A stretch of DNA of 64,000 bases from an uncultured Candidatus Saccharibacteria bacterium (GTDB lineage: Bacteria; Patescibacteriota; Minisyncoccia; Phycocordibacterales; UBA9973): contig CAZYIA010000002.1 in the NCBI GenBank assembly GCA_964646765.1, forward strand, positions 12,760 to 76,759, written 5' to 3'. The translations under genes and the position numbers were made by a program. The notes under the pieces were generated by a model that was given only the letters and a program-made list of their open reading frames with translations, did no database searches and was not told the DNA's origin. Positions 1,908-3,314 of the stretch are shown in pieces (the stretch's first letter is position 1; every line of letters begins with the position of its first letter).

Positions 1908-3314
1908 CTAGTGTACACATGATCCCTGGCAAACATGAAAGTGATTTCCTTCATCAACAAACATCCAGTTACCAATAGAATAACCCCAAGCTCCTGTTCG
2001 ACTATCACTGGTGACACATTGAGCTCGACTTTGGTTGGCCTGAACAGGCCAACCTGGGATGCAAGCTCGATGCTGTTTATTTGCATCAGTTATAACGTAT
2101 GAAACCAGAACGGTGTCCTCGGCGTCAAAGATTGGTTTTGCGATGTCGTGAGTTTTGTGTTTCCAGCACTCAGTTCCTCCTGTTATGTTGAGGGCGCACG
2201 TCGGGCATGATTGTCGAATTGTATCGGAAAGATTACGGAAGTCAGTGATTTGAGTATTAGTATATTTTGCCACACTTGTACAAGCAGCTTCTTGTCCAAA
2301 GGTTGAACAATTTTGACCAACAACAGATATTTTGTAACCATCTTGAAGGGCTGTCCTTTCAGTAGCATCGTTGTACCACGCATGACCAGCCTGGTTTACG
2401 GTAAAACCACCACAAGCTCGGATATCGTTAGTCGTGGTTGTAGCCTGCTCAGCATTTTCAATAAACTGAGGTTGAATTGAGATAACAGCAGAATCAATAC
2501 TAAAAACAATTGCAGAAAGTTGCGGATTTATTGTGTTTAACAAAAGAACCGAGCCAAGAGCAATAACTAGTCCTAGAATTGAGCGGGTGATCATCTCCTT
2601 CCCCCCTTCTTTTCGACTAAAAGCATCGGTGGTCATATATTGAACACCACCTAACACAATAGTAATAACTGCGAGAACACCAACTATTCCAATTATTATT
2701 TTTATGAGGACATTTACGTATTTACCAAATGAGTCATCAGTAAAAATTTTATCGAACTGTTGCCCCGTTGTACCAATTGGTAGTGGTTCAAGAAGACAAT
2801 ATTCCCCCGGGCCTTCAGTACACGTGCTTGAGCCGCCAGGATTAATATCAACATGGTTACTTCCGTCAGTATTTGTATGAGTCCCAGTTGTTATATGTCC
2901 CTGACCGATAATAGTTCCGTCCTGTCTAGTAACAAACCAATCGTAGTAAGTATTTTCCTGGATGATGTTCCCTGAAGCGGCAAAACCCAGAGTTCCCGTT
3001 CGTGGCCAACTACTCGCTGCTGGTGGAAATTCTAAATCGGATTGCAAGGTCTTAGTGTGACCTACTGGAGTTTTTGCTTGCCCCAATTTTTGTACTGAGA
3101 GTGTATATGGGGTTGTATCGTTGGCTTCAGCCTGAGTATCAACATGCACAGTAAAAGTTACCGTAAACCGATCATTAGATACGTCAATCTCAGGTGAATT
3201 TCCAAAGCTTACCGCCGCGAGTGCTGCGTATGGGGTACTGACAATAAGGAACACCATAAGAGTGAGCATTGAAACACAGGTTCTCAAAAAAGTTTTTATA
3301 GAAAAAAGTTTCAT
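1908..3314 (-). CDS. Secreted protein containing a VirB2/TrbC-like pilin hairpin (two TM helices separated by a short loop) plus a Cys-rich C-terminal domain
   Basis: Signal peptide (MKLFSIKTFLRTCVSMLTLMVFLIVSTPYAALA). Central motif: TM1 IIIGIVGVLAVITIVLGGVQYM, loop TTDAFSRKEGGKEMITRS, TM2 ILGLVIALGSVLLLNTI, which is the typical VirB2/TrbC topology. The C-terminal ~200 aa carry many Cys (CGGF, CSTFGQEAAC, CPTC, CQGSC). Confidence 0.4.
   Translation of the reverse strand: MKLFSIKTFLRTCVSMLTLMVFLIVSTPYAALAAVSFGNSPEIDVSNDRFTVTFTVHVDTQAEANDTTPYTLSVQKLGQAKTPVGHTKTLQSDLEFPPAASSWPRTGTLGFAASGNIIQENTYYDWFVTRQDGTIIGQGHITTGTHTNTDGSNHVDINPGGSSTCTEGPGEYCLLEPLPIGTTGQQFDKIFTDDSFGKYVNVLIKIIIGIVGVLAVITIVLGGVQYMTTDAFSRKEGGKEMITRSILGLVIALGSVLLLNTINPQLSAIVFSIDSAVISIQPQFIENAEQATTTTNDIRACGGFTVNQAGHAWYNDATERTALQDGYKISVVGQNCSTFGQEAACTSVAKYTNTQITDFRNLSDTIRQSCPTCALNITGGTECWKHKTHDIAKPIFDAEDTVLVSYVITDANKQHRACIPGWPVQANQSRAQCVTSDSRTGAWGYSIGNWMFVDEGNHFHVCQGSCVH

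Follow-up and report, generated by a model that had tools for sequence, protein, structure and literature searches.

A pilin-family membrane hairpin joined to a putative LAS-type cell-wall hydrolase module in a Patescibacterial type IV secretion operon

Much of bacterial diversity belongs to the Patescibacteria, and the parts and purpose of their type IV secretion systems (T4SSs) are poorly understood. The systems described to date are MPF-FATA-like, lie close to the replication origin, usually lack a relaxase and include VirB2-like pilins (PMC12102498, PMC10633639), exemplified in Southlakia by SEML1_0014-0019 (Wang 2023, PMC10633639; Quinonero-Coronel 2025, PMC12102498); the one strain tested cannot live on a host without its T4SS (PMC10633639). 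Every known VirB1 homologue of Gram-positive systems has a membrane anchor and extracellular enzymatic domains, the modules being of LytM, SLT, CHAP and MUR type (PMC12857230), and a survey concluded that the putative Patescibacterial VirB2 pilus needs no VirB1, since most Patescibacterial genomes are without a VirB1 homologue (PMC12102498). Here we describe a 468-amino-acid (aa) protein encoded in a T4SS operon within a 64,000-nucleotide (nt) stretch of DNA from an uncultured Candidatus Saccharibacteria bacterium (assembly GCA_964646765.1, contig CAZYIA010000002.1, positions 12,760 to 76,759; hereafter the 64-kb window). Read from its N-terminus, the protein starts with a signal peptide and continues with an FN3/immunoglobulin (Ig)-like N-domain and a Cys-loop that bears an LLEPLP motif; a two-helix hairpin and, last, a Cys/His-rich C-domain follow.

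On balance, we favor the view that this protein is a VirB1-like cell-wall hydrolase anchored by a VirB2-type hairpin and equipped with a new, divergent LAS-type module, acting as a core accessory subunit in a Gram-positive-type T4SS of the Patescibacteria (candidate phyla radiation, CPR). The open reading frame (ORF) opens with ATG and occupies 1908..3314 of the window on the minus strand according to the ORF list; its parts, with transmembrane (TM) segments abbreviated and model confidence given as the predicted local distance difference test (pLDDT), are as follows.

1908..3314, minus strand: whole ORF, the slot protein of the T4SS operon (ORF list; identical protein P0001; same gene order on a Logan contig)
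3213..3314, minus strand: predicted Sec-type signal peptide, aa 1-34 (MKLFSIKTFLRTCVSMLTLMVFLIVSTPYAALA/A; hydropathy, basic n-region, model helix 2-25)
2880..3209, minus strand: variable beta-sandwich of FN3/Ig-like type, aa 36-145, followed by a low-complexity linker, aa 146-164 (model strands, Foldseek)
2730..2822, minus strand: Cys-loop and LLEPLP motif (C165-x7-C173-LLEPLPIG...), aa 165-195, which form the N-terminal, conserved section of the pilin module
2517..2729, minus strand: VirB2-like TM hairpin, aa 196-266, in which a basic loop (QYMTTDAFSRKEGGKEM) joins TM1 to TM2 and NTINPQL closes TM2 (PF18895, AlphaFold helices)
2418..2516, minus strand: poorly conserved linker, aa 267-299 (pLDDT <50 over residues 269-297; 0-17% identity among relatives other than P0002)
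1911..2417, minus strand: Cys/His-rich, predicted extracytoplasmic C-domain, aa 300-468, proposed divergent LAS-type Zn peptidase (AlphaFold2, invariant residues)
2124..2186, minus strand: motif 1, ITGGTECWKH386KTH389DIAKPIFD397 (H-x2-H-x7-D), in register with MepA, three residues invariant
1935..1952, minus strand: motif 2, E455-G-N-H458-F-H460 (E-x-x-H-x-H), in the last strand, H458 and H460 invariant in 94/94

The initial annotation of this ORF as a secreted 468-aa protein with an embedded hairpin is borne out by the ORF list, by hydropathy, which displays three hydrophobic stretches (aa ~8-34, ~198-226 and ~241-264), and by a full-length AlphaFold2 model built from a 34-sequence alignment. 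The model places beta strands ahead of the hairpin, followed by two long helices, a disordered linker (269-297) and a confidently predicted C-terminal alpha/beta domain. K2, K7 and R11 precede the N-terminal hydrophobic core, which ends in ALA/A, a pattern compatible with a Sec signal peptide that, judging from the AxA motif, would be cleaved after ALA. P0001, the identical protein in public assemblies, is annotated with a start at M16 (453 aa), a start that we rejected because it would lose the basic n-region kept by P0002, a homologue of 63% identity; the longer start is therefore preferred. The gene order is also conserved on one Logan contig. Counting gives 13 Cys in the whole ORF (10 in the C-terminal domain, two just before the hairpin and one in the signal peptide), and not 14 in the C-terminal domain as had been stated; in its other details that description holds. 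The region after TM2 measures 204 aa. Conservation is unevenly distributed, mean identity being 66% in the hairpin, 32% in the C-domain and about 10% in the linker, and minimal family members (~285-300 aa) consist of signal peptide, hairpin and C-domain only.

The hairpin places the protein, with high confidence, among the pilin-family T4SS components. AlphaFold models its two hydrophobic stretches as long helices (196-228 and 232-262, pLDDT ~90), joined by a polar loop, MTTDAFSRKEGGKEM(ITRS), of 14-18 aa depending on the helix ends chosen, whose basic residues are R234, K235, K239 and R244. PF18895 (T4SS_pilin; gathering cut-off 26.6 bits) matches the whole protein at 27.2 bits (E 4e-6) and the isolated hairpin at 30.4 bits (E 4e-7). 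The earlier proposal of a VirB2/TrbC-like pilin hairpin, to be checked against TrbC/VirB2 (PF04956), thus held for the related family, whereas PF04956 itself remained below its cut-off of 27.9 bits (17.1 bits, E 0.0067). Among 21 related hairpins, PF18895 matched 21/21 (best 7e-12) and TrbC PF04956 matched 6/21 at E<=0.01 (best 3e-7); no holin or MARVEL family in Pfam matched this hairpin or any of the 21, so that the unrelated membrane-protein origin named as the way to overturn the proposal was not encountered. One gene separates the hairpin gene from that of VirB4 upstream, and its hairpin is the sole one of this type within the window. Searches of PDB with the hairpin profile returned no match, the solved VirB2, TraA and TrbC pilins included, and Foldseek comparison of the full model gave no pilin among the best 50.

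The hairpin is the best-conserved part of the protein, including residues of the polar loop and the flanking LL-x-PLP and NTINP-x-L motifs; conservation of both hairpin and predicted cytoplasmic loop suggests that they interact specifically with the VirB3/VirB4/VirB6 platform. Within the Cys-loop segment, Y172, E176 and P177 are invariant in alignment A1, and C165, C173, L174, L175 and L178 are kept in >=90% of relatives; distant relatives read Y-x-LL-x-PLP at the LLEPLP position. Canonical pilins measure ~70-120 aa without large globular domains, and here folded domains flank the hairpin: the 468-aa size, far above the canonical one, results from modules, predicted to face outward, fused on both sides.

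The strongest evidence comes from gene position. The operon reads, on one strand, VirB6-like protein, 250-aa protein, PrgI/VirB3, TrsD/TraC-like protein, VirB4, a 332-aa gene (g332), the hairpin gene and a 540-aa gene (g540), and the hairpin gene is separated by 6 nt from the stop of its upstream neighbor and by 6 nt from the start of its downstream neighbor. It corresponds to the Patescibacterial T4SS of Quinonero-Coronel et al. 2025 (PMC12102498) and Wang et al. 2023 (PMC10633639). A genome scan with the C-domain motif as query (one genome per species) identified 64 loci, nearly all in metagenome-assembled genomes of Patescibacteria/Paceibacterota. The order g332-hairpin gene-g540, downstream of VirB4, is repeated wherever the flanking sequence is long enough (g540 in 58, g332 in 47 and VirB4 in 45 of 64), and the hairpin gene is unique within about 8 kb in 60/61 loci where the hairpin profile detected it.

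To avoid bias, a metagenome census was anchored on g332, independently of the hairpin gene. A hairpin ORF directly follows g332 in 56/59 informative loci; 10 of these 56 ORFs carry the C-domain, six are cut by a contig end and 40 (34 distinct) carry other tails. Pfam assigns to the 34 distinct proteins T4SS_pilin (32), NlpC/P60 (11), VanY (6), SLT (2), YkuD (2) and phage lysozyme (1), such that an enzymatic tail is proven by Pfam in at least 22/34 distinct slot proteins without the C-domain; several others show weak matches to the lysozyme-like SLT_3. Tails vary even among the closest g332 relatives, spanning glycosidase, D,L-endopeptidase, carboxypeptidase and L,D-type enzymes. Furthermore, individual positional orthologues carry the same architecture: P0023, with a VanY/LdcB LAS carboxypeptidase tail (PDB 5hnm, 3e-9), and P0022, with a YkuD tail, both combine it with a hairpin, between g332 and g540 orthologues and downstream of VirB4, and P0009, in the same slot of an identically ordered cluster, ends in a tail ('H..CH..GTCVD...HFSVYD') that aligns with the C-domain motifs (E 0.016). 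Taken together, the census and these orthologues indicate that the slot holds a pilin-family hairpin with a swappable hydrolase module; the slot protein would therefore be a hairpin with an interchangeable peptidoglycan-hydrolase ectodomain, of which the C-domain is one.

Slot tails beyond these classes were also observed. Two loci (L089 5991-7565 and L144 5986-7251) have ~190-aa tails with a conserved 'KSY(K/R)TNNPGNIGNTD' and no Pfam match, which may represent another unclassified wall-acting module. Further Pfam-invisible tails with LAS-like motifs occur in L108 (5935-7662), L139 (5914-7119) and P0006/P0009/P0016/P0018/P0028, reading 'C-H...G-N-C-A-D-I ... H-L-H-V-N' and 'T-E-A-W...C-H-x-x-G-T-C-V-D ... 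H-F-S-V-Y-D', and the slot seems, from motifs of this kind, to hold several divergent LAS-like families. P0027 (L066 3338-5244) joins a hairpin to a Peptidase_M23 tail with no T4SS gene among its visible neighbors, directly behind a DsbA/thioredoxin gene that hints at disulfide formation in the Cys-containing ectodomains. Hairpin genes are occasionally found in tandem, as in a second hairpin ORF upstream of YkuD-tailed P0024 (L069 1-2767) and in L052 (7323-8974), with a 184-aa ORF behind the slot gene. The accession of SLT_3 ('Lysozyme like domain', PF18896), which weakly matches the tails of L083 and L101, directly follows that of T4SS_pilin (PF18895), suggesting that Pfam curators built both from such fusions and that a pilin plus lysozyme architecture is perhaps already implicit in Pfam.

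The C-domain is a new family of ~170 aa with 10 invariant residues. Modeled alone by AlphaFold2, it reaches pLDDT 92 and a predicted template-modeling score (pTM) of 0.87. An exhaustive HMMER search collected about 84 cluster representatives, to which a word-indexed homologue search with profiles contributed few additional sequences; these proteins are about 280-800 aa long, and the domain is nearly always C-terminal in them, following a pilin hairpin. Invariant in 94/94 sequences are C336, C345, C370, C373, E382, H386, H389, D397, H458 and H460. Searches of PDB sequences with the C-domain as a single sequence and as two profiles gave chance lectin and conglutin matches only, 26-34 C-domain members were without a match in Pfam, PHROGs and NCBIfam even at E<=10, and no SLT, CHAP, MUR or LytM match was found in this protein by Pfam. 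The 10 Cys of the domain are compatible with an extracytoplasmic location. That the domain serves chiefly as a Cys4 zinc-ribbon appears less likely, as this leaves the invariant His, Asp and Glu unexplained.

These invariant residues instead resemble an active site. Hedgehog supplies the 'S' of LAS, a group of peptidases and relatives. Its published definition combines an H-x(3-6)-D ... H zinc motif with an H-x-H whose first His is catalytic (PMC4087270). In the C-domain family, motif 1 takes the form GGTE-C-W-x-H-x2-H-x7-D, and E. coli MepA reads GGRFNGGH110ASH113QTGLDVD120 (H-x2-H-x6-D) ... H209-M-H211. Five invariant C-domain residues (H386, H389, D397, H458 and H460) correspond to the MepA active site: hhalign sets motif 1 in register with H110/H113/D120 at a marginal E of 0.078, and H458-F-H460 has the H-x-H of the definition, its MepA equivalent being H209-M-H211. 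E455 is invariant or almost so in smaller alignments. Against E. coli MepK, hhalign aligned the last strand only, pairing H460 with the Zn-ligand His of FVHID (non-significant E 0.27), and against the VanY domain of P0023 it aligned the 'NITGG' strand only (E 0.14). The best whole-domain Foldseek match in PDB is the N-domain of Sonic hedgehog (E ~1, template-modeling score 0.35-0.40, non-significant), and the top match in BFVD is a microvirus protein named 'Sonic hedgehog' (E 0.15, prob 0.69, non-significant). The motif and fold results agree with each other, none being decisive alone.

Several observations weigh against this assignment. The spacing between H389 and D397 is seven residues, one beyond the published range of 3-6 (PMC4087270). 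All profile comparisons are marginal, those with MepA, MepK and VanY as well as that with the 'HFSVYD' tail family, and hidden Markov models (HMMs) of the M15 (VanY and Peptidase_M15 variants), M23 and M74 families gave no match. Foldseek returned no significant fold match for the C-domain in PDB and BFVD (best PDB E 0.75), with MepA, VanX and LdcB absent from the best 50. Instead of pairing in disulfides, the four invariant Cys could make up a structural metal site. Module swapping, moreover, reveals the tolerance of the slot and not the activity of this module, and Hedgehog itself keeps a catalytically intact-looking LAS site yet serves as a ligand. Weighing these points, we consider that the tail is probably a cell-wall hydrolase, and find it somewhat favored, from its motifs, that it is specifically a LAS-type peptidase.

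The initial annotation had viewed the C-terminal region as a possible tip or adhesin module. With invariant H/H/D/H/H/E and slot orthologues that carry VanY, NlpC/P60, YkuD and SLT, this region looks enzyme-like instead, and an adhesin role plausibly fits the variable FN3/Ig-like N-domain alone. The strands of that domain are modeled at moderate confidence only (pLDDT 45-78), and its best Foldseek matches are Ig/FN3-type sandwiches (RsgI4 sensor, SKICH, FN3; E 3e-4 to 1e-2), the only kind of match that the full model gave. It is shared with P0002 alone and is missing or substituted in other relatives; N-modules of Filamin, Big_1 and TSP_3 types occur elsewhere. The FN3/Ig-like module probably positions or binds the protein.

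We propose that the protein would be exported by Sec and, upon cleavage of its signal peptide, inserted into the cytoplasmic membrane through the VirB2-like hairpin. The signal peptide, the basic loop and the Cys-rich tail together point to a topology in which the short basic loop would be cytoplasmic and both flanking modules would lie outside the cell. There, the C-terminal module would act as a disulfide-stabilized, divergent LAS-type (MepA / VanY / Hedgehog-like) zinc peptidase, with H389, D397, H460, H458, H386 and E382/E455 as putative Zn ligands and catalytic residues, and would cleave peptidoglycan stem peptides or cross-links beside the secretion channel, a task that in Gram-positive T4SSs falls to membrane-anchored VirB1-like hydrolases (PrgK, TraG). 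The hairpin would attach the enzyme to the platform of VirB3, VirB4 and VirB6, and could possibly be extracted and assembled by VirB4 like real pilins.

The alternative that survives best shares this chemistry and changes the target: the enzyme would be aimed at the wall of the host (prey), as a breaching device of an epibiont held by the T4SS. The bond specificities in the slot appear too varied for a constant self-wall, their swapping would track host peptidoglycan chemotypes, and the variable N-modules (FN3, Filamin, Big_1, TSP_3) are adhesion-like; the T4SS is, besides, essential for epibiotic growth in S. epibionticum. However, the linker after TM2 measures only ~35 aa, which would keep a non-polymerized protein near the membrane of its producer, and Gram-positive VirB1 enzymes cut the donor's own wall. 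We regard a host-wall target as an appreciable, if minor, possibility.

A second alternative holds that the protein is a true polymerizing pilin, its hairpin extracted by VirB4 and its filament decorated by the N- and C-modules, with a C-domain that mainly binds the host surface (as an adhesin or lectin) and a metal site that is structural or ligand-binding, as in Hedgehog or in the inactive VirB1 adhesins proposed for some Gram-positive systems. The pilin-family hairpin is indeed the most conserved part, its cytoplasmic loop included, the gene is the sole pilin-like one in the window and in 60/61 related neighborhoods, and the N-domain is of adhesion type; reviews, in addition, find a pilus plausible in Patescibacterial T4SSs and mention inactive VirB1 homologues as adhesins. 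A binding tail is harder to reconcile with five LAS positions and a Glu that are invariant in 94/94, as is typical of a working enzyme, and with the catalytic families (NlpC/P60, VanY, YkuD, SLT) that occupy the slot elsewhere. Polymerization would also have to accommodate two globular domains (~130 and ~170 aa) per subunit, which by our own uncomputed estimate is sterically tight on a helical lattice of VirB2 type, and no such filament has been seen. This reading therefore appears unlikely to us. Equally unlikely, in our judgment, is a 'self-drilling' pilus that would unite polymerization with catalysis: VirB4 would polymerize subunits that each bear a hydrolase and an adhesion module into a short wall-spanning or host-directed filament that opens host peptidoglycan. 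Module swapping would then track host wall chemistry, and the apparent lack of VirB1 at most Patescibacterial loci would be explained.

Processing of a polyprotein into a canonical ~100-aa pilin and free N- and C-terminal proteins, also raised at the outset, is very improbable. Some VirB2 pilins (TrbC, T-pilin) are trimmed C-terminally, the conserved Cys-loop/LLEPLP is located where the mature N-terminus of short relatives lies, and low-confidence linkers border the hairpin on both sides. Yet no protease gene or recognizable processing motif was found in the operon, and the minimal relatives (~285-300 aa) still join signal peptide, hairpin and C-domain in one chain. The fusion is kept in all >100 relatives and across unrelated tails, which argues that tethering is its purpose, and Gram-positive VirB1 hydrolases require a membrane anchor. 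A sortase substrate was likewise rejected, there being no LPXTG and the C-terminus being the last strand of the proposed enzyme. Finally, it is hardly credible that the hairpin anchors the protein as a member of an unrelated family (holin, MARVEL or claudin-like) and that its T4SS_pilin match reflects hydrophobic composition: the full-protein PF18895 score barely exceeds its cut-off, and neither the PDB search nor the best 50 Foldseek matches contained a pilin, but 21/21 related hairpins match PF18895 and 6/21 TrbC with no holin or MARVEL family among their matches, the gene keeps its place in a VirB4 operon, and the conservation of the polar loop, NTINP-x-L and LL-x-PLP goes beyond what composition explains.

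Returning to the putative anchored hydrolase, the remaining genes of its operon are the following.

279..1901, minus strand: g540, 540 aa, conserved downstream partner (orthologue directly downstream in 58/64)
3321..4319, minus strand: g332, secreted beta-rich protein of 332 aa, conserved upstream partner (orthologue directly upstream in 47/64)
4358..6193, minus strand: VirB4-type ATPase (PF19044 TraG P-loop 6.8e-27, AAA_10 4.5e-12)
6244-6900, minus strand: TrsD/TraC-like protein, 218 aa (orthologues carry PF26593 TraC-like)
6921-7349, minus strand: PrgI/VirB3-like protein (PrgI PF12666, 1e-9)
8190..11525, minus strand: VirB6-like candidate, a 1111-aa polytopic membrane protein (conserved position in 28/64; many hydrophobic segments)

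g332 has no Pfam or PDB match. g540 has an N-terminal TM segment and a T/P-rich linker, with PG_binding_1 and PD40 matching below threshold only in Pfam and no match in PDB. The 1111-aa protein has no Pfam match and is taken as a candidate VirB6 from its position and the published cluster (PMC12102498); its C-terminal tail is Gly/His-rich (...SSGGGHGGGGHDDHGGGDHGGHH) and a possible metal binder. The cluster is bordered by KsgA (15803-16591, minus strand) and UvrD (16728-18650, minus strand), with an R3H/Jag fragment (55-231, plus strand) at the start of the window. On related contigs the cluster continues into yidC, yidD, rnpA, dnaA and dnaN, indicating that the T4SS adjoins the replication origin, as reported for Patescibacteria. 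Promoter and terminator scans stayed at background level, Rfam returned only four tRNAs, and none of the direct repeats in the window involves the hairpin gene, giving no sign of a diversity-generating template.

In some related clusters, small four-helix-bundle genes of PF05635 (23S_rRNA_IVP / bAvd-like) are inserted between PrgI, TrsD and VirB4; bAvd-like four-helix bundles are a family of accessory proteins of diversity-generating retroelements.

L065 2488-2841; P0009 contig 3212-3580 and 4735-5091: PF05635-type insertions, absent from this window

Elsewhere in the window, two minus-strand genes (19975-21345 and 23277-26876) encode proteins of 456 and 1199 aa whose sole Pfam match is FtsK gamma (KOPS-binding), with no FtsK motor domain detected by Pfam in either. 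Two paralogous plus-strand genes (48458-50239 and 61459-63186) encode proteins of ~580 aa each, and in each a 71-nt segment that encodes a Cys-containing motif (FGC..LRKK..C..N..YTKEEYE) is present twice, the copies lying 465 nt apart. A 46-nt palindromic element (CATATATACATTTCTCACCCCTGACGTGGAATGTATATA...) occurs three times (63258-63303, 63803-63848 and 16635-16680); two copies flank the gene at 63320-63952, and the element may be a terminator or similar to repetitive extragenic palindromes (REP-like).

Collectively, these results delineate a conserved slot-gene class that, so far as the searchable literature goes, has not been explicitly described, and provide a concrete candidate for how a T4SS crosses a cell wall, its own or that of a host. 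The new ~170-aa domain family, with its 10 invariant residues, is usable for annotation, and the naturally occurring module swaps form a series whose relation to host range could be explored. Should the hairpin polymerize, it would be the first pilin known with an enzyme on each subunit.

Compared with known systems, the protein combines features of three classes. Like the Patescibacterial PF18895 pilins (e.g., SEML1_0014-0019 of Southlakia epibionticum), it has a signal peptide, two helices with a short basic loop and a place in a virB4 cluster. The Southlakia pilins, however, measure ~125-140 aa and are often arranged in tandem arrays, whereas here a single 468-aa copy occupies a fixed slot, the second gene behind virB4, and bears, unlike those pilins, a 110-aa N-module and a 170-aa C-module predicted to lie outside the membrane. 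With PrgK (pCF10), TraG (pIP501) and Orf14 (Tn916), it shares a monoderm-type T4SS operon, a modular build, a membrane anchor and a predicted extracellular wall-enzyme domain; it has the anchor and operon context of the VirB1-like class, the enzymatic nature of its tail being deduced. Those proteins have a single N-terminal TM anchor, in contrast to the pilin-family hairpin found here, and the proposed catalytic module of this protein is without an SLT, CHAP, LytM or MUR match. With the LAS peptidases (MepA M74, VanY/LdcB M15B, MepK M15A, Shh-N), the C-domain shares the order G-G ... H-x2-H-x(6/7)-D ... H-x-H, a predicted extracytoplasmic location, disulfide-capable Cys, a length of ~150-170 aa and, weakly and without significance, a best fold match to Hedgehog; it differs in giving no significant profile or fold match, in its H-to-D spacing of 7 against the published 3-6, in an extra invariant C-x8-C ... 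C-x2-C and in an invariant Glu that stands four residues ahead of the motif's first His.

A precedent is SEML1_0007 of S. epibionticum ML1, an essential 1113-aa protein encoded directly downstream of virB4 and without a Pfam match (Wang 2023, PMC10633639), whose C-terminal ~155 aa are classified by structure as Hedgehog/DD-peptidase, with Peptidase M15B/M23 as Foldseek neighbors (Wang 2023 Table S2, PMC10633639). Compared by published annotation alone, both are T4SS-cluster genes near virB4 whose tail Pfam does not recognize; SEML1_0007 differs in its 1113-aa length and in that no PF18895 match is reported for it. A fused VirB1-like hydrolase would explain why VirB1 homologues are reported to be scarce near Patescibacterial virB4, and the present data suggest, unlike the survey (PMC12102498), that in Paceibacteria-type clusters the wall-cutting function is fused to a pilin-like hairpin and served from one fixed slot by interchangeable hydrolases.

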